This document shows, in pieces, positions 48,602-63,696 of a stretch of 64,000 nt of DNA. The position numbers and the translations under genes were made by a program. The notes beneath the pieces are model-generated. The model was not told where the DNA came from. It was given only the letters and a program-made list of their open reading frames with translations, and ran no database searches. Within the stretch, counting starts at the first letter, position 1. The number at the start of each line of letters is the position of its first letter. This DNA comes from an uncultured delta proteobacterium (GTDB taxonomy: Bacteria > Desulfobacterota > Desulfobacteria > Desulfobacterales > B30-G6): positions 896,001-960,000 of the forward strand of contig CAWGLD010000001.1 of NCBI GenBank assembly GCA_963823335.1. The letters are read 5' to 3'.

Positions 48602-50086
48602 ATGCGTACTGAAAAAGAAATCGAGTACCTTTTAAAAGCCATCGATGCATTCCAGAGAAAAATCCTTGTCGTCACATCTGACTTTAAAATCCTGGCCTCA
48701 AATGTCCCCCTCGACAAGCTATCCGAGTCCAAAGATAATGGAAACACCTGTCACGAACTTTTTTATGATCGCCCGTCACCTTGCGAGAACTGCGCTGTCA
48801 AAGCAACCAAAGAAAGCCTCTCGCCGTCCCTGTGTCCCAAGCCTGACAGCTTCATTCTCGAAGGCAGTTTACCCTGTTTTTACGCCTATCCCATCATGGA
48901 CGGCAATACCGTGGAGGCCTATGTCAGTATGGACTTTCAGATCCCCAGCATAGGGCTGTTGGAAGAAGAGCTGCACCGCACCAACGCGCTATTGGAAAAC
49001 CTCCTTCTGAGTGCCGTCGATTGTGTGATCGCAGCCGACATGAAGGGGAATATTTTTCTGTTCAACGCATCCGCCGAGGAACTCTTCGGATACAGCAAGA
49101 AAGAAGCCAGAAACAGTATCAATGTACGCGACATCTACCCGGGAGACGGTGCACGTCAAGTGATGAAACTGTTGCGAAGCGATACCTATGGAGGTAAAGG
49201 GCGTCTAAAAACCTATCATACCAATGCTCTTTCCAAATCAGGAACAGAGATACCTATCAGCCTTTACGCATCTGTCATTTATGAAGAAGGCAAGGAAGTT
49301 GCTACCATTGGATTTTTTCATGATCTCAGGGACCGGATCCGGATCCAGAAAGAATTAGACGACACGCAGGTGCAACTATTACAAGCCGAAAAAATGTCTT
49401 CCCTGGGAAAACTGGCGGCAGGTGTTGCCCATCAGATCAATAATCCCCTGGGGGGTATTACCCTTTTTGCCAAGCTGATGCTGGAAGAATACACCCTTGA
49501 AAAAGGTGCTCAAGAAGATTTGCACCGCATTTTAAGAGATGCCGAGAGATGCCAGAACACGGTCAAGGAACTGCTCGAGTTCACCCGCCAGACACGGCAT
49601 CTGATGCAACCCAACAACATCAACGAAGCACTGAATCGAACACTGTTTCTTCTTGAAAATCAAACTCTTTTTCAAAATATTGATATCAAGAAAGATTTTC
49701 AGCCGGATCTTCCCCTCGTTGTATCCGATGCACAGCAGCTGTATCATCTGATGATGAACATCATTCTCAATGCAGCCCAAGCCATGGATGGCAATGGTGC
49801 GCTTCACCTTAAAACCTATCATCTGGAAAAACAGGCTCGTGTCTGCATCGAAATTTCCGACACGGGTCCGGGGATACCCGAGGAAGCCCTGCCACATATC
49901 TTTGAACCTTTTTTTACTACCAAGGATGAAGGCAAAGGAACCGGCTTAGGGCTCAGCCTGGCATACAATATCGCCGAAAGCCACGGAGGTAGGATGTCCG
50001 CCAGAAACAACCGGGAAAAGGGCGCCTCGTTTATTATCGAGTTGCCATCTGCTTCTAAAGATCAGAAAGGAGACGAGCGTGAATGA
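48602..50086 (+). CDS. PAS-domain sensor histidine kinase (NtrB-like)
   Basis: Cys-rich N-terminal PAS-like region, PAS, AGVAHQINNPL, NAAQA, DTGPGI, FFTTK, GTGLGL. Confidence 0.93.
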   Translation: MRTEKEIEYLLKAIDAFQRKILVVTSDFKILASNVPLDKLSESKDNGNTCHELFYDRPSPCENCAVKATKESLSPSLCPKPDSFILEGSLPCFYAYPIMDGNTVEAYVSMDFQIPSIGLLEEELHRTNALLENLLLSAVDCVIAADMKGNIFLFNASAEELFGYSKKEARNSINVRDIYPGDGARQVMKLLRSDTYGGKGRLKTYHTNALSKSGTEIPISLYASVIYEEGKEVATIGFFHDLRDRIRIQKELDDTQVQLLQAEKMSSLGKLAAGVAHQINNPLGGITLFAKLMLEEYTLEKGAQEDLHRILRDAERCQNTVKELLEFTRQTRHLMQPNNINEALNRTLFLLENQTLFQNIDIKKDFQPDLPLVVSDAQQLYHLMMNIILNAAQAMDGNGALHLKTYHLEKQARVCIEISDTGPGIPEEALPHIFEPFFTTKDEGKGTGLGLSLAYNIAESHGGRMSARNNREKGASFIIELPSASKDQKGDERE

Positions 50087-51575
50087 CAGCGCTGAAGCAT
50101 TGCAGGTTCTCATCGTGGATGACGAACAGGATATTCGAGAAGGCTCGGAACGAATCCTCATCCGTATGGGTTTCAAGGTGTCCAAGGCCGCCAATGGACA
50201 AGAGGCCCTGGATGTCTTTCCAAAGATAAAACCCACAATCGTTCTGCTGGATCTCAAAATGCCGGGCATGGACGGTATGGAAGTCCTGGAGCGGCTCAAA
50301 AAAATCGACCCCGCCATCATCGTCATCGTCATCACCGGCTATGCCACGGTGGAGACTGCTATCCAGGCAATGAAACAGGGTGCTTATGATTTTATCCCCA
50401 AGCCCTTTGAACCAGATCAACTCCGACTCATTGTCAACCGGGCAGCGGAAAAAATCCGTCTTGAAATGGAAGCGGAAAAGCTGACCCGGGAGCGCCAGCG
50501 AACCCTGCTGGACTTGGGAACTGAAAAAAGCCGTATCCGCACGATCCTCGAGTCACTCCCCAACGGCGTCCTGGTAACCAATACTCTGGGACGGGTCGTT
50601 TTAATGAACCCAGCCTTCAAGCAACTCCTGGGGTTCGATGCGGATTATCCCCTGGGTGAAAGCATCGAAAGATACCTTCCCGATGATGGCTTGTGCAAGC
50701 TTGTCATGGAAATTTCCAAAGGCAGGCATATCGACTTTGAAGACATTCCGGAATATGAGTTCTCTTTTTCCAAAGAACAGTATTTCATGGCCAAGGGGCG
50801 TCCGGTATTAGGACAGAAAAAGGAATGCCTGGGTGCTGTGGTAACGGTGGTGGACATTACCGCACTGAAAATGATTGATCTGCTGAAATCTGAATTCGTT
50901 GCCAAGGTGTCCCATGAACTGCGGTCTCCCCTCTCCACCATTCACGAACAGCTTGCCGTTGTTCTGGGCGACATGATGGACATCGCACCTGAAACCGACC
51001 AGAAAATCCTCGGCCGAGCCAAGGAAAAGACCCACAGCCTCATTTCCCTGATAGGCGACCTGCTTGACCTCTCCAGAATCGAAGAGGGCGTTATCTGCAA
51101 AGAACCCGTACCGGTCCAGGTCGACGTCTTATTGAAAAACATCATCGATTTCCTCAAGGACAAGGCCATTGCCAAGAAGCAGACATTGAGCCTGGAAATC
51201 ATGGGCGATCACCTCCCGGAAATGCAGGCAGACCCGATAGCCCTGGAAAGCGTCTTTGGCAATCTCATTGCGAATGCCATCAACTATACACCCGAAAACG
51301 GCCATATCCGCGTTACGGCCGAGGTGGCCGGCATCAATATCAAGGTGAATGTCATCGACAATGGGTTTGGGATAGAAGACAAGCATCTGGGCCAGATCTT
51401 TGAGCGGTTTTATCGCGTCAAAAACAATCAGACACGCTATATCACGGGAACCGGTCTGGGGCTCCCCATCGTGAAAGAACTGGTCCAGGCACTTGGCGGG
51501 TTTGTCGAGGTAGAAAGTGAGTTTGGCAAGGGGTCGGCATTCACGGTGCTACTTCCGGTAGCCTTGAACACCTGA
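50079..51575 (+). CDS. Hybrid receiver-PAS-histidine kinase
   Basis: VLIVDDE, LLDLKMPG, KPF; SHELRSPL, NAINY, DNGFGI, GTGLGL. Confidence 0.93.
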   Translation: MNDSAEALQVLIVDDEQDIREGSERILIRMGFKVSKAANGQEALDVFPKIKPTIVLLDLKMPGMDGMEVLERLKKIDPAIIVIVITGYATVETAIQAMKQGAYDFIPKPFEPDQLRLIVNRAAEKIRLEMEAEKLTRERQRTLLDLGTEKSRIRTILESLPNGVLVTNTLGRVVLMNPAFKQLLGFDADYPLGESIERYLPDDGLCKLVMEISKGRHIDFEDIPEYEFSFSKEQYFMAKGRPVLGQKKECLGAVVTVVDITALKMIDLLKSEFVAKVSHELRSPLSTIHEQLAVVLGDMMDIAPETDQKILGRAKEKTHSLISLIGDLLDLSRIEEGVICKEPVPVQVDVLLKNIIDFLKDKAIAKKQTLSLEIMGDHLPEMQADPIALESVFGNLIANAINYTPENGHIRVTAEVAGINIKVNVIDNGFGIEDKHLGQIFERFYRVKNNQTRYITGTGLGLPIVKELVQALGGFVEVESEFGKGSAFTVLLPVALNT

Positions 51576-51737
51576 GCTAAAAATTTCAAATTCCTATTTT
51601 TGGAACAACTTATAGTAAAATCGTCTTGTTCATCGGCTCTGCTGCAGGCTCTCGGCTGTTCTCGTTAAACCGGCCAACAACTGAGAACAAAGAGCGAAGG
51701 AGCTTGCCCCTTGAACCCTCCAAACCTCCACCCCTTT

Positions 51738-52553
51738 TTAATCCCCTTCAATAGCCGAAATAAACTCTTGCGGTGGTACCTGTAGGCCGGTCCATAGGGC
51801 AAAGGTTCTGCGAGCCTGATAGGCAAGCGGCATTAGACCATCCAGAAATCGAATCCCTTTGTCCTCGGCAGCCTTCTTCCAGAAGTTTTTCGGTCGGTCG
51901 TAATTGAGGTCCATCATCATTTCACAGGCTGGTAACTCCAAAGAGGCCACCAAGGCTGCCATTTCAGAAGATTCATCCATGCTCGAAACAGATGTGGCGT
52001 TGATGATGATATCAACCGGTATTCTCTGTCCCTCCAGGGAAGAGAGTGTTCTTGCTTCTCCCCCGAAGCGTTTCACCATCTGCTGCAATTTCTCATCGTC
52101 GCGCCCCGCTACAAAAATAGTTTTTGTGCGCAGCCAGTTCAGGATAAAAACAACCGCCCGGGCTGCTCCCCCGGTACCGAAAACCATGGCCGACTTGTCT
52201 TCGACGTCAAAACCGGCATAGGACAAGGCGTCCATAAATCCGATGGCATTGGTGTTGTATCCCTTGAGCTTGCCTTCAATGAGAACGATGGTGTTGACGG
52301 CCCCAATGATATTGGCACCCTCGGACAGGATATCCAGATAGGGAATGACCGCTTCCTTGTAGGGTATGGTAATGTTCGCACCGGCCATGTTCAGGATGCG
52401 AAGACTCTGAAGGGCCTGACCCAGATGCTCTGGTGCAACCTTGAACGGCACATAGATGCCTTTGATACCCATCCGCTTGAATACCATTGAAAATATCGCT
52501 GTGGATTTTGCTCGATATGCCCGTTCGTCAGAGATGATGCAATAGACTTGCAT
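51738..52553 (-). CDS. Shikimate dehydrogenase-like protein with degenerate active site
   Basis: GANITIPYKE, GAVNT, GTGGAARA, INATS, DG...LAYQA; but GYNTN replaces GYNTD and the HSxSP motif is absent. Confidence 0.85.
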   Translation of the reverse strand: MQVYCIISDERAYRAKSTAIFSMVFKRMGIKGIYVPFKVAPEHLGQALQSLRILNMAGANITIPYKEAVIPYLDILSEGANIIGAVNTIVLIEGKLKGYNTNAIGFMDALSYAGFDVEDKSAMVFGTGGAARAVVFILNWLRTKTIFVAGRDDEKLQQMVKRFGGEARTLSSLEGQRIPVDIIINATSVSSMDESSEMAALVASLELPACEMMMDLNYDRPKNFWKKAAEDKGIRFLDGLMPLAYQARRTFALWTGLQVPPQEFISAIEGD

Positions 52554-52603
52554 AATTTTTTGAGCCCGGTTTTATCAATACACACATGAAAAATCCATAA
52601 ATT

Positions 52604-53920
52604 TCATGAAGTTTCAGGGTTTGGGTACGGATTCACATCCACCAGATCCGGACCCAGATAAGTACGCTCGTTTTCTCCCAGAATGCCCATGGCCAGACAC
52701 ATGATGGTCCAGAGATGTAAGGTGTGGTAGTCCCCCTTGTAATGCTCTTTCAGGTCATGAATTTGAGAATGGCAGTTGTGACATGGTGTGATACAGTAGG
52801 TTGCCTTGGTTTCCGCTATCTGTTCAAATTTTCTACGGCCATAATACCGCCGCTCTTCCGGTAGCCCGGATTGAAGAAAACCGCCGCCGCCGCCACAACA
52901 AAAATTGTTGGAGCGGTTAGGTGTCATATCGATGAAATTCTCTTCCCCTACAATAGACTTGACAATAAAACGGAGGTCTTCCGCTATGGGATCCCCAAGT
53001 GACTTTCTCACCAGCTGGCAGGGATCCTGGACCGTGAATTTGACGCCCAGTTCCTTGTTCCAATCCGAGTTGACCTTCAACTTTCCTTCACGCATCCACT
53101 GCGCGTAGTATTCGATGATTGATTTGACTTCAAACGTATGTTCGATGTTGAACTTGTTCAGTCCGACCCGGACCGAAAAAAATTCATGCCCTCACTCCGT
53201 ATTGAGCCAGACCTTACACCCCAAATCCTCCACGGCCTTGGCTTTTGTTCGAACATTTTTTTCCCACTTCTCGTTATCGGCCAGAAACAGACAGTAATTC
53301 TCCGCTGCCCACCCTTTTGAACCATAGGTCCAGTCCGCACCCACCGTATGGAGAATTTTCCATAGTGGCACCATCTCATCCGGTTCCGTCACGGGCTCCC
53401 GGGAGTTCTGGTTCAGGAAAAATTCAGCCCCGGCCCTATTGATCGAGGCCTGCATCTCTTTGAATTCCGGTTGGGCTTCCTGATATTCTTCCAGCACATC
53501 TTCCACCACGAAGATAAAATCCTCTTCGGTTGCCCCCATGGCACTGCAGGTCTCGTTCTTAAAAGACATTTCACACGATCCATGAATGCCTTTCGGCAGA
53601 TCGTCCTTGGGCCATCGGTTTCTTACATTGAAAACAAGACCTGGAATATCGATTTTCATGGGGCAGGCGTAAATACACCGCTGGCACATGGTGCACATCC
53701 AGGCCCACTTGGAACTCAGGACCTCCTCATCGAGCCCGAGTGACGCCATTCTCAAAAATTTTCTCGGGTCCATCCCTTCCAGTCCAGTGGCAGGACACCC
53801 GGAGGAACAAAGACCGCAGGTCAGGCAGAGATTCAGGTTTCCGCCCTCGGGCAGAATTTTCATAACCTCGTCTTTGAAGATGCTCTTGCTTTTTTTTAAC
53901 TCCAGAACCGGCATTGACAT
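52604..53920 (-). CDS. Selenocysteine-containing HdrC-like/CCG-domain Fe-S protein (HdrD/DsrK/TmcB-like), 438 aa, Sec243
   Basis: ORFs 53192-53920 and 52604-53095 are in one frame separated only by TGA (53192-53194) in NTE-U-GHE (ECGH motif); CLTCGLCSSGCP, CTMCQRCIYACP, DPC, CCGGGGG, PCHNC. Confidence 0.9.
53157..53177 (-). promoter_or_regulatory. Putative SECIS element
   Basis: TTCGGTCCG-GGT-CGGACTGAA stem-loop starting 14 nt after the UGA. Confidence 0.78.
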
Positions 53921-53993
53921 GCTTGACTCCTCACAGTTTCGGACATCAGAAATAAACCGTATGCTTCATCGAATCAGATCGGTCTTGCCCTGT

Positions 53994-54383
53994 TTACATG
54001 TTGAGCATCTGCCTGATACTTTGGGAAATCGCTTCCGCAGAGGCTGGTTTGGCGATATAATCATCTGCTTCCGTACTCATGCCGTCGGCATGGGAATAGC
54101 GGGTAGAGGTCACATGGGATGCCACGGCAGTCAGCAACAGCACCGGAATATCGCAGAGATTGCTGTCTGCCTTGAGTTCCTTGCACATCTCGTAACCATC
54201 TTTTTCCGGCATCATAACATCGAGCACAATAGCATCCGGGGGATTGGCTTGAACCTTTTCCATGCCCTCCACACCATTGTAGGCCAGTTCAACTTCGAAT
54301 CCTTCCTTTTCAAGCTGCCCCTGAACAATGGAGCAGAAGTCAGGCTCATCGTCTACCACCAGTATTCTTTTTTTATCTGTCAT
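53994..54383 (-). CDS. Single-domain response regulator
   Basis: ILVVDDE, VLDVMMP, LLTA, YIAKP; GAGGAGG RBS before ATG 54383. Confidence 0.93.
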   Translation of the reverse strand: MTDKKRILVVDDEPDFCSIVQGQLEKEGFEVELAYNGVEGMEKVQANPPDAIVLDVMMPEKDGYEMCKELKADSNLCDIPVLLLTAVASHVTSTRYSHADGMSTEADDYIAKPASAEAISQSIRQMLNM

Positions 54384-54480
54384 GGAAAACCTCCTCTTTA
54401 TAACGTTAAACACCGCACTGATGACCCTCGAACCTTTGACTGAGATCAACTTTTCAAGATGATCAACAACAGGCTTATTC

Positions 54481-55410
54481 CTAAATCTGGGGTCGTGGGT
54501 ACAGACCTGTCTTTTCTACGATCTCGGGAACCTTTTCCTCCCATTCGATGGCCATGACGTGAAATCCGCTGACACCCTCCACCTCTTTCAGGCGTTGAAT
54601 ATCCTCGATGCAGATTTTGATACCTTCTTCGGCCTGTTTTTCCTTAGGCGTATCTGACAGGCGCTTGACCAGTTCATCGGGGACATCCATTCCCGGAACA
54701 CGGTTTTTCATGTATTTGGCCATTCCCGCAGATTTCATGGGTGTCATGCCCGCCAGAATATAGACCTGTTCGTGCAGGCCGCGATCTCTAGCCAGCTTCA
54801 TCCACTCTTCAAACTTATCCAGATTGTAGATGCACTGTGTCTGAATAAATTCTGCGCCAGCCTTGATCTTCTTGGCAAGTCTCGGAACACGAATTTCAAA
54901 GGGATCTGCAAAGGGATTTGCAGCGGCGCCCACGAACATTTGGGGCGGCCGCTTGATATCATCACCCCCCAGAAATTTTCCTTCGTCTCGCATGTGGCGA
55001 ACGGTCTGGACCAGCTGCATGGAATCCAGATCGTGAACATTCTGCCCTTGTGCACAGTCTCCAAAACTCTGATGGTCACCTGAGAGACACAATATGTTGG
55101 CAATATCAAAGGATGCGGCACCCAGAATATCGCTCTGAAGAGCGATACGATTTCGGTCACGTGTCACCATTTGCAGCACCGGCTCCAGCCCCATGAGCTT
55201 GAGACGGATACAGGCGGCCAGGCTGCACATGCGGGTTACCGACGTCTGGTTGTCCGTGATGTTGATAGCATCCACATGATCCTTGATCAGCTCGGCTTTC
55301 TTGATAATGGTATCCGGATCACTGCCGCGTGGCGGACCACACTCTGAGGTTACGGCCAGATGTCCGGCGGAGAGAATTTTTTCCAAGCGACTCGGTGTCT
55401 TCGTTTTCAT
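54481..55410 (-). CDS. metF: Methylenetetrahydrofolate reductase MetF (MetV-associated type)
   Basis: SECGPPRG, INITDN, RDRNRIALQSDILGA, LSGDH, KIKAGAEFIQTQ, GFHVMAI. Confidence 0.93.
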   Translation of the reverse strand: MKTKTPSRLEKILSAGHLAVTSECGPPRGSDPDTIIKKAELIKDHVDAINITDNQTSVTRMCSLAACIRLKLMGLEPVLQMVTRDRNRIALQSDILGAASFDIANILCLSGDHQSFGDCAQGQNVHDLDSMQLVQTVRHMRDEGKFLGGDDIKRPPQMFVGAAANPFADPFEIRVPRLAKKIKAGAEFIQTQCIYNLDKFEEWMKLARDRGLHEQVYILAGMTPMKSAGMAKYMKNRVPGMDVPDELVKRLSDTPKEKQAEEGIKICIEDIQRLKEVEGVSGFHVMAIEWEEKVPEIVEKTGLYPRPQI

Positions 55411-56075
55411 GGTTGCACATCCTCCCTCACGACTTTTCTGGGTCCACCTGCCCGGTCGGTGGACCAGTCTTTGATCGGACTCAGATCTTCATATTCTTCG
55501 AATCTGTCCAGAGCCTTGAGACGCTCGACAATCAGTTGCCAGGCACATACCAGTTCCTTGTTTATTTCACACATTCCCTTGCTGGAACCGCCGCAGGGTC
55601 CATTCATGACGCGTTTTGCACATCGGGAAACCGGACAGATACCGCCTGTTCGGGATAGAATGCACTGACCGCAGCCCTGGCATCGCTCGGCCCAGTGGCC
55701 TCGCTCTTCGGTCACGCCCATAAAACAGGTGTCCACCCCAGGATAAATGGGTGTTGAATGGTATTTTTCGGCGGCAAACTGGACACCCACACCACAGGCA
55801 ATCGACACGATGGCATCGTACTGATCAACGACATTGCGGATCTCTTCGAGATATTCGTGATCACACTGACGCTCAAGGGTGTTTTCATCGATCTTCATTT
55901 CCTTGCCCTGGTTCAGAAAATACATGCGCAGGGCCGAGGCCAGAATGCCTACTTCCTTTTTTCCTCCAGCTTCACAGACCGTTACGCACTCATTGCATCC
56001 CAGCACCAGGATTTTATTATGGTCCTTGATGTCCTCAATAATCTCTTCAATCGGTTTTTTGTCGGCGACAATCAT
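55407..56075 (-). CDS. metV: MTHFR small Fe-S subunit MetV
   Basis: GCNECVTVC, RQCD, ACGVG, RCQGCGQC, CPVSRCAK..NGPCGG, CAW; stop overlaps the metF ATG. Confidence 0.9.
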   Translation of the reverse strand: MIVADKKPIEEIIEDIKDHNKILVLGCNECVTVCEAGGKKEVGILASALRMYFLNQGKEMKIDENTLERQCDHEYLEEIRNVVDQYDAIVSIACGVGVQFAAEKYHSTPIYPGVDTCFMGVTEERGHWAERCQGCGQCILSRTGGICPVSRCAKRVMNGPCGGSSKGMCEINKELVCAWQLIVERLKALDRFEEYEDLSPIKDWSTDRAGGPRKVVREDVQP

Positions 56076-56119
56076 AATTTCATCCTTTTACTTTCCATAA
56101 ACAGATCGGTTATATGAGC

Positions 56120-56551
56120 TCACGCTGCTTTTTTTTTCTGCAACTTGATCGGATTCGGTCCGAGTTCCTTAATCCGTTCCACCATTTTGACCGCCACCTC
56201 TGCGAACAGGGGGCCTTCGCTCGACGCCATGTTGAACATCTCCACACGCTGGCTGCCCACACCCACGGTGTCGAGTATCTTCTTGGCCTGCTCGATCCGT
56301 TTTCGTGCCCTGAAATTCCCACTGGTGTAATGGCAGTCGCCTTCCATGCAACCCACGGCATAGACTCCGTCGGCCCCCTTTTCAAAGGCTTTTAAAATAT
56401 GCAAGATATCGACCTTGCCGGTGCAGGGTACACGAATGATTTTGATATTCGTGGGGTATGTCAGTCGCATGGAACCTGCCAGGTCCGCGGCTGTGTATCC
56501 TCAGAAGTTACAGCAAAATGCGATAATGATCGGTTCAAACAATTGACTCAT
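56120..56551 (-). CDS. mvhD: Selenocysteine-containing MvhD [2Fe-2S] subunit, 143 aa, Sec17
   Basis: ATG 56551 overlaps the hdrA stop; [17 protein letters not shown](TGA 56501-56503)-GYTAADLAG continues in frame into RVPCTGKV, GADGV, GCMEGDCHY. Confidence 0.93.
56471..56486 (-). promoter_or_regulatory. Putative SECIS element
   Basis: GGACCT-GGC-AGGTTCC hairpin (one bulge) starting 14 nt after the UGA. Confidence 0.68.
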
Positions 56552-59500
56552 AAGACCCCCTCCAGCAAAGCTTCTATCTTGCAGATCAGTTGATCATCTT
56601 GATACCAATTCAATTCTATGGCCTTGGCCGGGCATTCCGATGCGCATACCCCGCACCCCTGGCACATGGCGATGTCTATTTCACTCACCCCTTCCTGGTT
56701 GATTTTCGGGACCCCATAGGGGCACGAACGAACGCATACGAGACATGAAGCACATTGATCAGCGTCTACCCAGGCCGTAATGGCTGACAATGTCAGCTCC
56801 GGCTGGGCAAGAAATGTAATAGCCCGGGAGGCGGCGGCACTGGCCTGGGAAATGGTTTCAGATATTAATTTGGGGCTGTGGGCCGTACCGCAGACAAAAA
56901 TGCCTTCCGTGGCCATATCCACCGGTCTCAGCTTGACATGCGCTTCCATGAAAAAACCTTCCGGTGTTCTGGCAAGCTTGACGATGGAAGCGAGCTCAGA
57001 CGTGTCTTCGGCAACCATGCCTGCGCTCAGGACCAACTTGTCCGCCGTTACCATCAACGGTCGATTCAAGACATGATCAAAAAATGTCACCTGCACGCCA
57101 TCTTGCGATGATGCCACCTGAGGCGGGTTCTCCGGTGTATAGCGGAAAAACAGAATGCCCTGTTTTCTGGCCTCTGTATAGTACTCTTCCAGGAGTCCAT
57201 AGGTCCGAATATCCCGGTATAGGACATAAATGCTGGCATCCGGATGATCTTTGCGGATATGCAATGCATTCTTGATGGCGTTCTGGCAGCAGATACGCGA
57301 ACAGTTGGGGTTCTCGTCATTTCGGGATCCAACGCACTGAATCATGACCACCTGCTCCAAAGAACCCGACGGCACATCATCCAGGTGCTGGGCGAATTCC
57401 ACCTGGGTCATGACCCGGTCGTCTTCTCCGTACAGATACTCTTTGGGCTGATATTCCTTTGCGCCGGTAGCCAGTATTACAACGCCATGCTCGATTTTTC
57501 GTTCGTACATACCCGGTCCAACCAGAACTTCCGTGGTGAAATTGCCCTTGAAACCGGAAAACCCCACAATCAGGGACTGAGTCAGCACCTGGATTCTTTC
57601 ATGGGTCATCACACGGTCCGAAAGCCGCGTCAGATAAGGCTGAATTTCGGCGCCTTCAATGGTGGCCTTCAGCTGGTTGGCCATACCCCCCAGACGATTC
57701 TCTTTCTCCACCAGAAACACCTCGTATCCCTGGTCTGCAAGTCCCAGGGCGGCATTCATCCCGGCAATGCCGCCACCCACCACCATGGCTTTTTGAATGA
57801 CCGGGATGGTTTTTTCCTGGAGTGGATGGAGGGTTGCTACCCTGGCCACGGCCATGCGTACCAGATCCTTTGACTTTTCGGTGGCTTCCTCGGCTTGTTT
57901 GGCGTGTACCCATGATCCCTGGTTACGAATATTCGCCATTTCGAAAAGATATTTGTTCAGTCCGCATTCCCTCATCGTATCCATAAAGATCGCTTCATGT
58001 GTTTTGGGCGTGCAGGCGGCCACGACGATACGGTTGAGGTTCTGCTCCTTGATGATTTCCTTCATCTGGCCCTGAGAATCCTGGGAACAGGTAAAGAGAT
58101 TCTGCCCAACATATGTGACATACGGCAATGTTTTTGCATAGGCTTCCACGGCAGCCACATCCACGACACCGGAGATATTGATCCCGCAGTTGCAGACGAA
58201 TACGCCAATCCGGGGTTCTGCGTCACTCACATCGATTTCTTCCGGCAGATCGACCGAGCGGGTCAAGGTGTTTCGAACCGCTGCAAGGCTTGCACCCGCC
58301 GCACAGGCAGCGGCCGAGGCCTCCGTGACGGAGCTGGGAATGTCTTTTGCCTCCTGAAAGGCACCGCAGACATAGACACCGGGACGCGATGTCTCCACCG
58401 GTGAAAACGGATGGGTCACGGCAAAATGATTGTGATCCATCTCCACATCCAAGCGCCGGGCCAGATCAATGGTCTGCTCCGACACCTGAAGACCGACAGA
58501 AAGTACCACCATGTCGAAGAATTCTTCCTGCATTTCGCCGGCCTCGTCTGCATAGCGGATACGAAGATCTTTCGCTTCTCCAACCTCATCGATGGTATGC
58601 ACCCGGGCCTTGACAAAATTCACGCCCTCCTGGTCCTTGGCTCGAAGATAATATTTTTCAAAATCCTTCCCGAACGTCCGGATATCCATGTTGAAAATGG
58701 TGCAGTCCAAGTTGCCCTGGGCATGCTCCTTGGCCACCATGGCGTCCTTGATGGCATACATACAGCAAACAGAAGAACAATATCCATTACCGCACTGGTT
58801 GTTGTCCCTGGAGCCGATACACTGAAGCCAGGCAATACGCTTCGGCTCTGTTTCATCCGAAGGCCTGATCAGGTGCCCCATGGTCGGACCGGAGGCGCTC
58901 AGCATCCGTTCGAATTCCAGGCTGGTCATGACATTGGGATTCGTTCCATAGTGGTAATGCTTTTCAAGAACAGTGGGGTCGTACGGGCGGCTTCCCGGGC
59001 TGAGGACCACGGAACCCACCTGGATCTCCTTTTCCACGACAGCCTGGTCATGTTCCACGGCACCGGCCAGACATGCTTCTACGCACTGGTAGCATTCTGA
59101 ACAAATCCCGCAGGAAAGACAGCGATTGGATTCTCTTTGCGATATGGCTTCATCGAAACCGAGTTGAACCTCGTTGAAATTGGAGACTCTTTGATCCGGC
59201 GACATGCAGGGCATCTCTTCTTTGGGCAGTTCAGCTACACCCTCCAGGGGCACCTCGTCAATCGGAACCCATGCCTTTTCCCTACCGGCTGAAAGGTCTG
59301 TCCCGCAAACAAATCGATCGATGGATATGGCAGCCTCTTTTCCCGCAGCCACGGCTTCCACAACCGTTGCCGGCCCCGTGACGGCATCCCCGCCTGAAAA
59401 GATATCCGGATCATTCGACTGCAGCGTTACGGGATCCACATTGATGGTTCCCCAATCGCTCAAGGTGCAGGCACATTCATCCGTCAGACAGGCCCAGTCA

Positions 59501-61002
59501 CTTTCCTGGCCAATGGCCGGAATCACTGTATCAACTTCGATGGTAAATTCGGATCCTTCAATGGGTACAGGTCGGCGACGGCCGCTGGCATCGGGTTTAC
59601 CCAGTTCCATTTTAATACATTCCAGCGCTACGACCTTCCCGTTTTCACCGATAATACGCACCGGACTGGTGAGGGTCATGATGTCAATACCCTCTTCCCG
59701 GCATTCTTCGATCTCTACATCATTGGCGGGCATCTCCTCGAAGCTCCGCCGATAAATGACAAACGGTTTGGAAGAACCGGTCCTCAGGGCCGTGCGAACC
59801 GAGTCCATAGCCACATTTCCGCCGCCGATCACGGCTACCCGGTCTCCCAGCTGAACCCTGTTTCCAAGATTGACCTCACGCAGAAAATCAACGCCTGGAT
59901 AAACACCCTCCTGCTCTTCTCCTTCAACACCCAGGACTTTGCATTCATGAGACCCGATGCCAAGAAAAAAGGCCTTGAATCCGTCCTTGCGCAATTGGTC
60001 GATGGTGATGTCTTTTCCGAGCTCGACACCCGTTTTGAATTGAACCCCAAGATCCTTGATTATTTGAATTTCACTTTCGATGATATCTCGTGGCAGACGG
60101 TAGGATGGAATGCCGACGGTCAGCATACCGCCCAGCACCGGCAGTTTCTCAAAGACCGTGACCTGGTAGCCTTCTATGGCCAGGAAATACGCGCAGGTCA
60201 AGCCTGCCGGCCCTGCCCCGATAATTGCTATCTTTTCAGGTCGTTTTGCTTTCTGTTCCGGTACAAAGGGGGCTTTTGCTTCAAGATCCCTATCCGCCAG
60301 AAAACGATGCAGATACTGGATGGACAAGGTTTTGTCCACTTGGTTTCTGGTACAGGCGCCTTCACAGGGATGATGGCACACCCGGCCGCAGACCCCTGGG
60401 AAGGGATGGTCCTGTTTGAACAGTTTCAGTGCTTCCAAATATTTCCCAGACTGAATAAGGGCAATGAATCCCTGGACGCTTACATGTGCCGGACAGGAGA
60501 CCTTGCAGGGCGCCGTACCTCTTTTTTCGATGGCAAAAGCGCCTGGAATCGCCTGGGGATACTGCTTGAAGGCCGCTCTTTTGTCTGAAAGACGTTCATT
60601 GTAGTCGTCGGGCAGGGATACCGGGCAGACCTTTGTGCATTCACCACAACTTGTGCATTTGGCGATGTCGATATACCGTGGCGCCTGACGGATCCCGGCA
60701 GTTAAATTACCCGGTTCTCCTGTGAGAGACATGAGTTCGGTATTGGTTAGAAGTTCGATGTTGAGATGCCGGCCGACCTCGACCAGTTTGGGTGAGATAA
60801 TTCACATGGCACAGTCATTGGTTGGAAATGTCTTGTCCAGCTGTGACATCATTCCACCGATCGCGGAGGATGATTCAACCATGTACACATAATAGCCTGA
60901 ATTGGCTAGATCCAGGGCCGATTGCATACCTGCGATGCCACCACCGACCACCATGACCGAACCGACCAAATCCTTTTTGTGATCACCTGATTGTTTCGTC
61001 AT
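56548..61002 (-). CDS. hdrA: Selenocysteine-containing large HdrA (HdrL type) with GltD/NfnB-like NAD(P)H module, 1484 aa, Sec67
   Basis: ORF 60802-61002 (GGGIAG...[12 protein letters not shown]) reads through TGA 60802-60804 into [17 protein letters not shown] and the 1394-aa ORF; U replaces the second Cys of HdrA DCxx[42 protein letters not shown], second GGGIAG, C-terminal 2x[4Fe-4S]. Confidence 0.93.
60769..60786 (-). promoter_or_regulatory. Putative SECIS element
   Basis: CTGGTCG-AGGT-CGGCCGG hairpin starting 15 nt after the UGA; the AGGU loop resembles the E. coli fdhF SECIS loop. Confidence 0.75.
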
Positions 61003-61012
61003 TTTTGATTCC

Positions 61013-61882
61013 TTAAACCCTTTTCAGTATCGCCGGGAGCTTATCTTCCCACCCGATTGTGGAAAGCTGCACACCGCAAAAGCCTTCCTTTTTTAGTGTT
61101 TCAACCATTTCTGAAGCAATTTTAATACACTCAGCGACCTTGTCTGGTGCCTTTTGGAGACGCTGGATCAACGAATCGGGAATGAATGTGCTGTTTACAT
61201 TGCGGGATATATAGCGTGCCATTCCAAGGGATTTGAGCAGCAGAACCGTCGGGATTATTTTGGTTTCTGTGCGGTCCACACGCTTGAGAAACGGTTCGAT
61301 GGTGGACAGGTCAAACAAGGGCGGGGTTATGAAAAACGCCGCGCCGGCTTCTTTTTTCTGATCCATCTCTTCCCGTATCAGTTCCGGTGACTTGTCTCTT
61401 GCTCCGGCATCGACGGTTGATCCCACCAGAAAGGTGGGCGCACCATTGAGCTCGATACCGGCCATGTCTCTTCCATTCTGAAGCCCCCTAATGGCTTTCA
61501 ACAGCTCCGGTAAGTCAATATCATGCACCGCTCTGGCCTGGTGGTGATCGCCGAAACTTGGATCTTCTCCCCGGACAACCATTACATTTCGAATACCGCA
61601 ACCATTGGCCGCCAGAAGATCCGCCTGGATGGCGAGACGGTTGCGATCCCTGCAATTGACCTGCATGACCACATCCATGCCCTTAGACTGGAGGATCATA
61701 CCGCATCCCAGGGAACTCATCCGCATCACAGCGTTACGCATCTCCGGTACAACGAATGCATCGACGATTCCTTTAACTCTCTGCGCATTTGCAACCATTG
61801 CGGAAACATTCACCCCTTTGGGGGGTTCCATTTCTACAAGAACGGCAAATTTCCCTGCTTCTAATTTCTGTTTTAGACTCAT
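61013..61882 (-). CDS. Divergent MetF-like (MTHFR-fold) paralog
   Basis: [45 protein letters not shown]. Confidence 0.88.
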
Positions 61883-61965
61883 GGGTTACCTCCGAATAAA
61901 GCCGGCGTCCGGTGCTATAAAACCCGCGGTTCCCTTCAACATCGGGACGTGGGCCATGCGAGAGA

Positions 61966-62020
61966 AATCTTGGGTCGTAAGGTATCGGTCTATTTCAGAT
62001 TCGCTCGCTGTTGCGGTTCA
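61966..62020. repeat. Dispersed palindromic repeat family, copy 5 (internally deleted)
   Basis: TCAGATTCGCTCGCTGTTGCGGTTCA joins the TTCGCTCGCT core of copies 1/3 to the GCTCGCTGTT..GGTTCA end of copy 1. Confidence 0.7.
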
Positions 62021-62040
62021 GATGTGTTAACAGACTGCAT

Positions 62041-62057
62041 AGCAATGACTGTGCCAA
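62041..62057 (-). promoter_or_regulatory. Sigma54 (-24/-12) promoter of the metF2-hdrA-mvhD-metVF operon
   Basis: Minus strand reads TTGGCAC-AGTCA-TTGCT, matching TGGCAC-N5-TTGC. Confidence 0.85.
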
Positions 62058-62163
62058 AGCCCCTGTTAATTGCGGAAGGCTAAAAGAACCTATACTATCA
62101 AACAACTATCTTCTTTTACGATCGAAAGTGCACACAAGTATCAGGTCTCGTGGATAGGACGGC

Positions 62164-62254
62164 TGTGCCATTTTGGAACATAGCTTCATATTTCTGTTGT
62201 ATTGTTGAGAGATTGGATGGTATGTGCCATATTGGCATACGCCAAAGTGGCAGG
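62164..62254. promoter_or_regulatory. Putative enhancer (UAS) palindromes for the divergent sigma54 activator
   Basis: TGTGCCATTTTGGAACA (62164-62180), TGTGCCATATTGGCATA (62223-62239), weaker TACGCCAAAGTGGCAGG (62238-62254). Confidence 0.6.
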
Positions 62255-62325
62255 GCAGTGACCCCTTGTCGGCCGCACAGGTATTTCAACATCGTTTCAA
62301 CTGTTTCCCAGATAGGAGGAAAGGT

Positions 62326-63696
62326 ATGGAGCCACATATTCTTGTGGTGGATGATGACCGTGATTTTCTTGAAATCATGAAACGTCGCCTTAAAGATCTC
62401 CATTTCAGGCATGTACATCTCAATGAAAATCCATTCAAGGCGGCATCCCTCATAGAAACCGGTAAACATATTGACCTGGCACTGCTGGACATGACCATGC
62501 CCGACATGACCGGGCTGGAACTTCTGGATATCATAAAAAAAATAAGCCCTGTCACCGAGGTCATTATCATCACGGCGGTGGACGAAGCCAGAACAGCTGT
62601 GACATGCCTGCAAAAAGGCGCTTATGATTACCTGATCAAACCGGTATCAAAGGAAGATCTGGCCTTGTCCATTCACCGCGCTCTGGAGCACAAACTGTTG
62701 CTGGATCTCCGAGATATCGGAAAGCAGCAGGCCGTACCCCGTCTCAAGGACAAAGAGGCCTTCAAAGAAATCAATACCGTCTCAAAACGCATGATGCGGG
62801 TTCTCAAGGAGGCCGAGCTACATGCCGTTAGCGATGTTCCTGTGCTCATCACCGGTGAAAGCGGCACGGGAAAAGAGTTGCTTGCACGAGCCATTCACCA
62901 GGCCAGCCCCAGAAGAACCCACCCATTTACAGCTATCAACATGGCCTCTCTCAACGGAAATCTGTTCGATGCCGAGTTTTTTGGACACACAAGAGGCGCC
63001 TATACAGGAGCAGAAAAAGACCGGGCCGGATATCTGGAATACACCCACAAGGGGACCCTTTTTATGGATGAAATTGGGCTTCTTCCCCTAGAGGTTCAGG
63101 GAAAGCTTCTTCGGTTTATGCAGGACGGCAGGTATCTCAAGCTGGGAACCAGCGCCGACAAACACGCGGATGTCCGTTTTGTTGCCGCTACCAACACCAA
63201 CCTGGAAAATCGCATGAAGCAACGACAATTTCGGAAAGACCTTTTTTACCGTATCCGAGGTGGATGGTTGCATCTACCTCCCCTGCGGGAACGCAAAAAG
63301 GATATTCCGCTGCTGATACGGACATTTCTTTCGACCCATTACGACCTCGACAAGGGAAACAGTATTACACCTGAGGCTATTGATATTCTTGTAAATTATG
63401 ACTTTCCCGGCAATGTGCGGGAACTCAAAGCCCTTGTACAGTCGGCTGCTAATCTTGCCCAGGGAAAACCCATCTCGCCCCGATTTCTCCCGGAATCCAT
63501 CCGCCGTCGAAAACAGCTCAAGACCACGGCGCTGGCGCCAGGCGCAGCGCCCCTCACATCCCTGGGCGTGGTGGAAAAAATCCATATTCTTCATGCTTAC
63601 CGGCAACTGGGGAAAAACAAATCCCAGACGGCCAGGATCCTGGGGATCGGTCTGAATACCCTGCGAAGAAAACTCGCCCTGTATGGGGAAAAATAA
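62326..63696 (+). CDS. NtrC-family sigma54-dependent response regulator
   Basis: Receiver ILVVDDD/LLDMTMP, GESGTGKE, GAYTGA, LFMDEIG, FRKDLFYR, FPGNVREL, Fis-type HTH; AGGAGG RBS before ATG 62326. Confidence 0.95.
   Translation: MEPHILVVDDDRDFLEIMKRRLKDLHFRHVHLNENPFKAASLIETGKHIDLALLDMTMPDMTGLELLDIIKKISPVTEVIIITAVDEARTAVTCLQKGAYDYLIKPVSKEDLALSIHRALEHKLLLDLRDIGKQQAVPRLKDKEAFKEINTVSKRMMRVLKEAELHAVSDVPVLITGESGTGKELLARAIHQASPRRTHPFTAINMASLNGNLFDAEFFGHTRGAYTGAEKDRAGYLEYTHKGTLFMDEIGLLPLEVQGKLLRFMQDGRYLKLGTSADKHADVRFVAATNTNLENRMKQRQFRKDLFYRIRGGWLHLPPLRERKKDIPLLIRTFLSTHYDLDKGNSITPEAIDILVNYDFPGNVRELKALVQSAANLAQGKPISPRFLPESIRRRKQLKTTALAPGAAPLTSLGVVEKIHILHAYRQLGKNKSQTARILGIGLNTLRRKLALYGEK

Follow-up and report, generated by a model that had tools for sequence, protein, structure and literature searches.

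A predicted Hdr-linked methylene-tetrahydrofolate reductase operon with three putative selenoproteins in an uncultured member of the Desulfobacterales

Which reaction is catalysed by the products of an operon in which genes for methylene-tetrahydrofolate (methylene-THF) reductase lie among genes for an unusually long HdrA-type flavoprotein and its partners? This question is raised by eight minus-strand genes at 51738-61882 of a 64-kb stretch of DNA (hereafter the window, to whose positions all coordinates refer unless a contig is named) from contig CAWGLD010000001.1 of an uncultured delta proteobacterium of the order Desulfobacterales. The genes, all in the same orientation, follow one another in the order metF2, hdrL, mvhD, metV, metF, receiver, hdrD-like, and aroE-like. 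As in the enzyme of Moorella, metV and metF are adjacent and an HdrA-type flavoprotein and MvhD are encoded in the same transcription unit. Our answer, to which we assign a probability of roughly 55%, is that these genes encode the form that the Hdr-linked (Moorella-type) methylene-THF reductase takes in the Desulfobacterales, with the wiring of electron ports proposed below. As predicted from sequence, its most likely activity would be that of a reversible methyl-/methylene-THF : NAD(P) : disulfide (or ferredoxin) oxidoreductase.

Gene content, transcription, and distribution

Genes were named from Pfam and NCBIfam profile matches. The metF2 gene (61013..61882) encodes a divergent paralog in the methylene-THF reductase family, a protein of 289 residues matching PF02219 (101.2 bits, profile positions 2-285 of 287) and is followed by hdrL (56548..61002), whose predicted 1484-residue selenoprotein product contains two HdrA modules and an NfnB/GltD-like module. 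Next come mvhD (56120..56551), for a putative selenoprotein of 143 residues (PF02662, 166.3 bits), metV (55407..56075), for the 222-residue Fe-S partner of MetF (PF12225, 122.6 bits), and metF (54481..55410), for the 309-residue catalytic subunit of methylene-THF reductase (PF02219, 125.9 bits). The last three genes encode a single-domain response-regulator receiver (53994..54383; 129 residues counted from ATG; PF00072, 87 bits), an HdrD-like (HdrC-like/CCG) selenoprotein of 438 residues (52604..53920), and an AroE-like protein of 271 residues (51738..52553; Pfam PF08501 and PF01488).

A preliminary description of this DNA had listed eight co-oriented genes, ATGA overlaps at hdrA/mvhD and metV/metF, and no separate hdrB or hdrC. 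All of this was confirmed: the eight genes are on the minus strand, the overlaps lie at 56551-56548 and 55410-55407, and within 51738-61882 no separate hdrB or hdrC was found, a fused HdrC/CCG selenoprotein being present after the lone receiver. The description was right to regard this protein as a selenoprotein and wrong in counting only one, as three are predicted (HdrL, MvhD, and the HdrD-like protein). The remaining intergenic gaps measure 10, 44, 97, 73, and 50 nt, and the operon is limited by a divergent gene on its upstream side and a convergent gene on its downstream side. The start of hdrL was placed at the ATG at 61002, 10 nt past the metF2 stop, from which reading through the TGA at 60804-60802 (codon 67) gives 1484 residues. 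A table-11 open reading frame (ORF) for hdrL at 60732..56548 (1394 residues) was rejected because it is truncated by the in-frame TGA and the real start lies upstream.

A putative sigma-54 type -24/-12 promoter motif, TGGCACAGTCATTGC, is located on the minus strand at 62042..62056, 160 nt upstream of the metF2 start, and adjoins the divergent gene, which encodes a sigma-54-dependent activator (62224..63696, plus strand; receiver, AAA+, and HTH_8). It is the sole zero-mismatch match in the window to TGGCAC-N5-TTGC, which we take to be the sigma-54 promoter consensus (78 matches at two or fewer mismatches), and a strict motif of this kind was found upstream of metF2 in 8 of 17 loci of the window's type (type A, see below). 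The eight genes are predicted to form one sigma-54-dependent operon. Scans for sigma-70 promoters and for terminators gave chance-level results (10 found and 10.1 expected; 12 found and 12.2 expected), and a terminator-like hairpin at 51712-51697, 26 nt past the aroE-like stop, carries no weight. RNA contigs from four estuary metatranscriptome runs covered 27 to 30 of 30 bins, and contigs of these libraries span metF2/hdrL (60802-61219), metV/metF (54953-55640), and receiver/hdrD (53678-54415); they record presence in RNA libraries and are no proof of one transcript. The depth of RNA contigs jumps at 60500-60863 to 495 (X10), 186 (X13), and 29 (X12), with many loose ends at 60754-60758. This peak probably consists of contigs of other organisms piling up, because the stretch encodes a conserved HdrA motif and a hairpin.

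An HdrL-like match at E<=1e-150 was present in 38 of 41 related genomes. For comparison of gene order, 40 loci were fetched around near-full-length HdrL matches, selected by coverage. Eighteen are type A, comprising 10 with the complete order metF2-hdrL-mvhD-metV-metF-receiver-hdrD-aroE-like, 3 cut by contig ends, and 5 without the hdrD-like gene. In ten the order is hdrL-mvhD-hdrD-metV-metF (type B; one of these runs into a contig end after hdrD), one has hdrL-mvhD-metV-metF, and two have a second HdrA-MvhD pair ahead of hdrD-metV-metF. In the other nine, of which three are cut by contig ends, HdrL is accompanied by MvhD, preceded by an HdrD-like gene, or solitary. In loci L136 and L137 (genomes G035 and G025), HdrL-MvhD is followed by an insert-free tandem HdrA-MvhD, ahead of hdrD-metV-metF. 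MetV and MetF share a locus with full-length HdrL in 30 of the 40, which supports the earlier view that hdrL, mvhD, metV, metF, and the HdrC/CCG gene belong to one set. A collection of named genomes yielded 80 loci, of which 66 are plain GltD/NfnB relatives and 14 cover at least 1000 HdrL residues; among the latter, MetV-MetF-HdrL-MvhD was found in one Clostridiales and one Spirochaetes metagenome-assembled genome (MAG), and HdrL-MvhD-MetV in a Dehalococcoidales MAG.

Orthologs of metF2 (E<=1e-70) and of the aroE-like gene (E<=1e-60) were counted in 301 genomes sampled from the order, which are kin. The former were found in 168 genomes and 94 of 155 genera, the latter in 135 genomes; 124 genomes have both, 44 metF2 only, 11 the aroE-like gene only, and 122 neither. 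The cluster is a real, common, and well-conserved operon, and with metF2 orthologs so widespread in the order the 'unusual composition' first ascribed to it was not borne out.

This linkage bears on the possibility that two co-transcribed enzymes are encoded, a stand-alone ferredoxin-dependent MetFV (with MetF2) and a separate HdrL-MvhD-HdrD unit, an oxidoreductase of the Flx-Hdr kind acting between NAD(P)H and a disulfide or ferredoxin, which we consider distinctly unlikely. The arrangement hdrL-mvhD-(hdrD)-metV-metF recurs in both paralog types and in three other phyla, the junctions of mvhD with its neighbours hdrL and metV are overlaps or short gaps, and six homologous proteins co-purify in Moorella (Buckel and Thauer 2018). 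Its appeal is that several loci have HdrL-MvhD and no MetVF, that MetFV, in published summaries, functions by itself in Clostridium ljungdahlii, and that such summaries connect HdrABC/HdrL in Syntrophobacter with sulfate respiration and not with folate.

The genome of the window's organism carries a type-B cluster as well, hdrL-mvhD-hdrD-metV-metF at C1:1680349-1688215, in which the HdrC/CCG gene lies between mvhD and metV. In-frame TGA codons are present at its HdrL, MvhD, and HdrD-like sites, and metF2, receiver, and aroE-like genes are absent; identity to the window proteins is 61% for HdrL, 73% for the HdrD-like protein, and 63% for MetF. The occurrence of types A and B in one genome suggests that the two may divide labour. 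Both types were also seen together, among the fetched loci, in seven other genomes. The genome of the window's organism also has genes for acetyl-CoA synthase, formyl-THF synthetase, FolD, and DsrC, a content that fits a sulfate reducer with a Wood-Ljungdahl pathway. Three further loci of this genome were noted. At C1:1607162-1614424, the only DsrC gene found is about 3 kb from another HdrA-type set with an in-frame TGA and its own MvhD, an arrangement that recalls the HdrL1-MvhD-DsrABC locus of Desulfobacterium autotrophicum. At C1:522790-524187, matches to the methylene-THF reductase (MTHFR) and MetV-C families share one 538-residue frame, an apparent MetF-MetV fusion that would be a fourth MetV copy in the genome. 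At C5:439295-444000, an HdrD-like gene, a tandem HdrA with a TGA and without the NfnB-like insert, and MvhD form a set at which folate genes were not detected by the queries used.

Anatomy of HdrL and the selenocysteine sites

HdrL was aligned to solved HdrA (PDB 5odc chain A) and to NfnB (PDB 4ylf chain B). Residues 17-161, 634-842, 929-1100, and 1333-1480 of HdrL correspond to residues 147-291, 293-499, 3-174, and 500-650 of HdrA, respectively, and residues 163-567 to residues 44-461 of NfnB (E 2.4e-94). The first HdrA module contains a flavin adenine dinucleotide (FAD) site, Cys64/Sec67 (Sec, selenocysteine), the inserted ferredoxin domain, and the CxxC of the thioredoxin-reductase-like domain; the ferredoxin domain is itself split by the NfnB/GltD-like NAD(P)H module. 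The second contains the N-terminal Fe-S domain, FAD, and the C-terminal 2x[4Fe-4S] domain; the 5odc_A alignment and a motif scan found in it neither a CxxC nor a stretch that aligns to the inserted ferredoxin domain. All elements of the HdrA fold (FAD site, CC-motif cluster, Cys197 plus N-terminal-domain cluster, and both ferredoxin domains) were found in HdrL, and each accessory domain occurs once across the two modules. Sec67 aligns with Cys197 of solved HdrA, gap-free over 5odc_A 147 to 249. Since Cys197 of one HdrA ligates the N-terminal cluster of the other, HdrL is by its sequence a single-chain asymmetric HdrA pair, that is, a heterodimer in one chain, as has been inferred for Moorella HdrA and for HdrA3/4 of anaerobic methanotrophic (ANME) archaea (Chadwick 2022, PMC9012536).

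The inserted module has the N-terminal Cys clusters, FAD GxGxxG, and NAD(P) motif of NfnB/GltD proteins. Three GxGxxG flavin sites occur in HdrL as a whole, and 14 aligned homologs show no variation in GGGNVAMD (393-400) or YRR (417-419). Both the two HdrA-type modules with a GltD/NfnB-like insert and the NAD(P)H site built into HdrA had been proposed in the preliminary description; the former agrees with the alignments to 5odc_A and 4ylf_B, and the latter is supported by the invariant motifs and the 4ylf_B alignment. Profile NF009410 matched hdrL with 559.5 bits (cut-off 516) over residues 68-572 of the 1394-residue ORF, while the NCBIfam HdrA equivalogs were not reached (HdrA2, 802.8 against 1100; HdrA, 645.9 against 1400); by these scores HdrL is a relative, and no equivalog, of methanogen HdrA. 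It combines a fusion of HdrA to a glutamate-synthase-type NAD(P)H module with an adjacent mvhD, as HdrL was defined in 2009 (Strittmatter et al., PMC2702500).

Positions of TGA codons were aligned in the 80 and 40 fetched loci of relatives plus the two clusters of the window's own genome. At hdrL codon 67 (60802..60804), 72 aligned stretches comprise 44 TGA, 22 Cys codons, 5 gaps, and 1 GAA; at mvhD codon 17 (56503-56501, motif CCNFUGY), 54 stretches comprise 32 TGA and 22 Cys codons; and at codon 243 of the HdrD-like gene (53194-53192, motif NTEUGH), 30 of 31 stretches have TGA and one has Tyr, a Cys-bearing homolog being found in none of the 31. TGA is the sole stop type seen in frame at the three positions. 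All three UGAs are followed, about 14 to 18 nt downstream, by the start of a hairpin with a G-rich loop that resembles a selenocysteine insertion sequence (SECIS). That of hdrL, CUGGUCGAGGUCGGCCGG, lies at 60769..60786 and that of the HdrD-like gene at 53158..53176, each beginning 18 nt past its UGA, and that of mvhD lies at 56472-56486, all on the minus strand. Over the 33-nt hdrL stretch, the fold energy averages -10.2 kcal/mol for 42 TGA genes and -5.8 for 22 Cys genes; for mvhD, the TGA and Cys genes are equal (-9.4 and -9.3). The hairpin of the HdrD-like gene has 8 pairs, 3 with compensatory two-sided changes (RNAalifold, 20 sequences). The Rfam SECIS family gave no match over 51000-62500 at E up to 10, only four chance-level hits being returned, and tRNA-Sec is present in the genome. 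HdrL, MvhD, and the HdrD-like protein are predicted on these grounds to be three selenoproteins; among the selenoprotein families known from marine Deltaproteobacteria are HdrA, MvhD, and 'Fe-S oxidoreductase' (Kivenson 2021; Strittmatter 2009, PMC2702500).

The HdrD-like protein joins an HdrC-like 2x[4Fe-4S] N-terminus to one complete CCG motif (C301, C341, C342, C380, and C383). A profile built from 15 orthologs matches HdrC with its N-terminus (E 1.7e-18) and the second HdrB CCG domain with its C-terminus (E 2.4e-07); the first CCG region is degenerate and carries an invariant E-U-G-H with Sec243. The protein, which is outside every curated family tested, would functionally replace HdrB and HdrC.

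Proposed electron routes and competing schemes

The electron routes were proposed by mapping the domains of HdrL onto the published paths of solved MvhADG-HdrABC. Electrons leave HdrA by two exits, one toward HdrBC via the cluster of the thioredoxin-reductase domain and the other toward ferredoxin via the Cys197-ligated cluster and then the inserted ferredoxin domain (Chadwick 2022, PMC9012536). In the window's complex, MetV-MetF would be the folate-side enzyme, and MetF-MetV-MvhD the donor branch. The low-potential exit would lead from the Sec-ligated cluster of the N-terminal domain through the inserted ferredoxin domain and the NfnB-like flavin to NAD(P)+, and at the high-potential exit the Sec/CCG site of the HdrD-like protein would reduce a disulfide, for which a DsrC-type protein is the obvious candidate. 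During acetyl-CoA oxidation by the reverse Wood-Ljungdahl pathway, methyl-THF would reduce NAD(P)+ uphill as the other electron passed downhill toward the sulfur branch; in CO2 fixation, the complex would run in reverse. The potential of NAD(P) is -320 mV and that of the CoM-S-S-CoB disulfide about -140 mV. For the methylene/methyl-THF couple, an E0' of -200 mV is given (Buckel and Thauer 2018). Because this value lies between NAD(P) and the disulfide, methyl-THF could serve as a bifurcation donor and methylene-THF as a confurcation acceptor.

The same potentials put methyl-THF oxidation by NAD(P)+ alone uphill by about 120 mV, which argues against a non-bifurcating NAD(P)H-dependent reductase in which HdrL would do no more than oxidise NAD(P)H and pass the electrons through Fe-S clusters to MetV-MetF, like RnfC2 of Acetobacterium woodii. 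There is a precedent in A. woodii, whose MetFV, in published summaries, takes electrons from an added NADH module without bifurcation, but two full HdrA-type flavin modules together with MvhD and a Sec/CCG protein would make a costly wire. We consider such a reductase very improbable.

The placement of the NAD(P)H module and the Sec site bears in turn on a different coupling, the one put forward for the purified Moorella complex (Buckel and Thauer 2018, section 16). There, NAD(P)H would be the donor at the NfnB-like module, with methylene-THF as the high-potential and ferredoxin or flavodoxin as the low-potential acceptor and the HdrD-like protein as a wire or ferredoxin site; reversed in a sulfate reducer, methyl-THF and reduced ferredoxin would yield 2 NAD(P)H. 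The NADH site of the Moorella complex is indeed on HdrA (Yi 2021), and the CO dehydrogenase/acetyl-CoA synthase of the genome would provide reduced ferredoxin. However, this coupling leaves the CCG residue that is always Sec (30 TGA and 0 Cys in 31 stretches) without a role, the topology of solved HdrA places the NAD(P)H module on the ferredoxin-ward branch and not on the donor branch, and ferredoxin was not reduced by the Moorella enzyme in the tests summarised by Buckel and Thauer (2018). We regard it as unlikely.

Several points weigh against the Hdr-linked reductase with the ports proposed here. HdrL-MvhD is found without MetVF nearby in four Smithella/Syntrophaceae loci and in three others, and the module is therefore not tied to folate. 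The HdrD-like gene is absent from the cluster in the five type-A loci counted above and in one other locus, and its product in the window has a single complete CCG motif and stays far below the cut-offs of its closest NCBIfam models, HmcF (175.9/750), TmcB (165.4/735), and DsrK (117/400). The metatranscriptome contigs, in which DNA carry-over is possible, cover the flanks of the cluster too. The Moorella enzyme, the sole purified relative, showed no physiological coupled reaction in the account of Buckel and Thauer (2018), and our reading of the direction, of the second acceptor, and of bifurcation as such is inferred from the layout.

The accessory triad and relation to known complexes

MetF2 is 33% identical to MetF, and its mean column identity is 78% compared with 90% for MetF (17 orthologs each). 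It keeps the Glu of E-x-x-P-P, whereas D112 of MetF (SGD) is E106 and T191-Q192 of MetF are T186-P187; these positions presumably correspond to Glu28, Asp120, and Gln183 of E. coli MTHFR. MetF2 had been called degenerate, a label that we drop, as no decay was seen: the MTHFR match runs over its full length, and the column identity is that just given. A three-chain model of MetV, MetF, and MetF2 was generated with a 17-row alignment per chain. The MetF-MetF2 pair scored an ipSAE of 0.91 against 0.00 for the best of three controls, with a partner pLDDT of 89 and at least 97% of contacts shared between model runs; the pass mark applied is reached by 116 of 157 solved complexes and by 2 of 215 mismatched pairs. 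The predicted interface uses matching surfaces on both proteins and includes the RDRNR motif of each. The three-chain job gave no support for MetF2-MetV contact (0.00 in the control with MetF replaced). No MetFV-type complex was found in the PDB by sequence, MetF and MetF2 matching distant MTHFRs only, and one more point belongs with those gathered above: the pass of the pair may stem from resemblance to solved MTHFR homodimers. MetF2 probably pairs with MetF. The proposal that MetF2 and the AroE-like protein are accessory subunits keeps its first half through this pairing and loses its second, the AroE-like protein looking rather like part of a separate triad that stands alone elsewhere.

In the receiver protein, D11, D12, D55, T85, and K112, presumably the signature residues of a receiver domain, are invariant (17 orthologs). 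Also invariant in these is the segment between the signature T and K (residues 87-109, VA.HV.STRY.H.DGMS.EADDY), which is unlike that of ordinary CheY-like receivers and may be a surface for docking. The AroE-like protein keeps the motif Lys and GxGG and lacks the HSLSP motif, and NTN replaces NTD in the window copy and in 16 of 16 orthologous stretches, a distant match having NTD; Lys and the Asp of NTD are what we take to be the catalytic pair of shikimate dehydrogenase. K66, N100, T101, and N102 are invariant (15 sequences). The protein stays below all NCBIfam shikimate dehydrogenase cut-offs (182.6 against 252; 174.1 against 200.2) and falls in ordinary shikimate dehydrogenase clusters of the ESM Atlas; a canonical aroE was found elsewhere in the genome. 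A role as a FolD substitute was rejected, as a FolD gene exists in the genome.

Ten additional loci were fetched, picked for a metF2/aroE-like spacing of about 0.8 kb (genomes of another family) or for contiguity. In four of them (L140-L143), metF2, receiver, and aroE-like genes stand alone, with no Hdr or MetV genes within the 19 kb fetched. The triad of L140 has a divergent sigma-54 activator gene at one end and, at the other, genes for a receiver-PAS kinase and a PAS kinase on the opposite strand. The window operon is flanked by the same frame, namely the activator described above and two PAS histidine kinase genes convergent with the operon (48602..51575, plus strand), the second encoding a receiver-PAS-kinase hybrid. 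Since L140 has the triad with this frame, the window operon would be an Hdr/MetVF core inserted into such a cassette, or the history would be the reverse. Judged by gene order, the three genes appear to be a separate co-travelling accessory module; a regulatory role for the receiver and the AroE-like protein is a guess. Orthologs of metF2 also occur in loci L147 (63% identical) and L148 (72%) with the other seven genes absent within about 9 kb, and in L147 a GltD/NfnB-like gene is in the vicinity.

A bolder version, in which methyl-THF would be the donor split between NAD(P)+ and a DsrC-type disulfide and MetF2, the receiver, and the AroE-like protein a phosphorylation-controlled set docking on MetF, is in our estimate unlikely. 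If true, it would couple sulfite reduction directly to acetate oxidation at its methyl branch, and the set, with its NAD(P)-binding pseudo-dehydrogenase, would control the activity or direction of the enzyme.

The closest known system is the MetFV-HdrABC-MvhD complex of Moorella thermoacetica, purified in 2014 (via Buckel and Thauer 2018). Its metV-metF, mvhD, large two-flavin HdrA, and HdrB/C functions are likewise encoded in one transcription unit, its HdrA is a two-module fusion with complementary Cys197 and N-terminal domain (Chadwick 2022, PMC9012536), and its NAD(P)H site is on HdrA (Yi 2021). The window cluster differs in fusing HdrB and HdrC into an HdrD-like selenoprotein with a single complete CCG; its HdrL has three GxGxxG sites and the NfnB-like insert, and it has three predicted Sec and the extra metF2/receiver/aroE-like genes. 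Relative to ANME HdrA3/4, the HdrL modules are reversed, the Cys197-bearing module coming first and the one bearing the N-domain second (Chadwick 2022, PMC9012536). The methanogen MvhADG-HdrABC complexes (PDB 5odc, 8rvu, and 7bkb) share the FAD, the CC-motif cluster, the Cys197-ligated cluster, both ferredoxin domains, and an alignable MvhD, and their HdrC and second HdrB CCG domain can be aligned to the HdrD-like protein. Unlike them, the window cluster has no hydrogenase, has one chain in place of the HdrA dimer, places an NAD(P)H module on the ferredoxin branch of HdrL, and would use a substrate other than CoM-S-S-CoB.

HdrL1-3 of Desulfobacterium autotrophicum HRM2, from the same bacterial order, share the fusion of HdrA to a glutamate-synthase-type module, the NADH site, and an adjoining mvhD, and a selenoprotein in two of the three copies (Strittmatter et al. 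2009, PMC2702500). In that paper, figures and supplements aside, they are linked to DsrABC and electron cycling and not to MetF, and neither the domain asymmetry nor the equivalence of Cys197 and Sec was found. In ANME-1 HdrA9-11, an NfnB-like insertion of 500 residues interrupts the inserted ferredoxin domain, and a tie to MetF-derived electrons has been proposed; these proteins are archaeal and not beside metF, and no description of a second HdrA module in tandem was found for them (Chadwick et al. 2022, PMC9012536). Marine Chloroflexi have hdrA-mvhD-metVF-hdrCB with fused hdrCB, two-component genes by metF, and two unlike metF (Sewell et al. 2017, PMC5736913), and in Seep-SRB1g HdrABC adjoins metF and has been read as a bifurcating MetF-Hdr in Desulfobacterota (Murali et al. 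2023, PMC10553843). For these last two clusters, the metF2-receiver-aroE-like triad, the Sec sites, and the HdrL anatomy were not found described in the two papers, S10 Fig aside.

HdrL (2009) and Hdr genes beside metF in sulfate reducers (at least 2018-2023) were thus already known, Met-Hdr sets having been counted by 2018 in 8 genomes of Proteobacteria, a phylum that then included the sulfate-reducing Deltaproteobacteria. Four features were not found in the literature searched, figures and supplements aside: the module-by-module asymmetry of HdrL with Sec at the Cys197 position, an HdrD-like selenoprotein as a stand-in for HdrBC, the metF2-receiver-aroE-like triad with its sigma-54/kinase frame, and the predicted MetF-MetF2 pair. 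Figures 4 and 5 and the supplements of Strittmatter et al. and S10 Fig of Murali et al. may already contain this cluster.

The cluster is a common variant, never purified, of a known enzyme complex, of a type carried by more than half of the genomes sampled from an order prominent among marine sulfate reducers, and the domain layout yields a concrete, predicted wiring. Methyl-THF oxidation, which is uphill with NAD+, is the unsettled step for anaerobes that reverse the Wood-Ljungdahl pathway, and the second substrate of the sole purified Hdr-linked reductase is likewise unsettled. The domain layout of the cluster offers a possible three-port wiring of folate, NAD(P), and a Sec/CCG thiol, and the triad, with its own sigma-54 activator and kinases, would provide a handle on regulation of the methyl-THF step.

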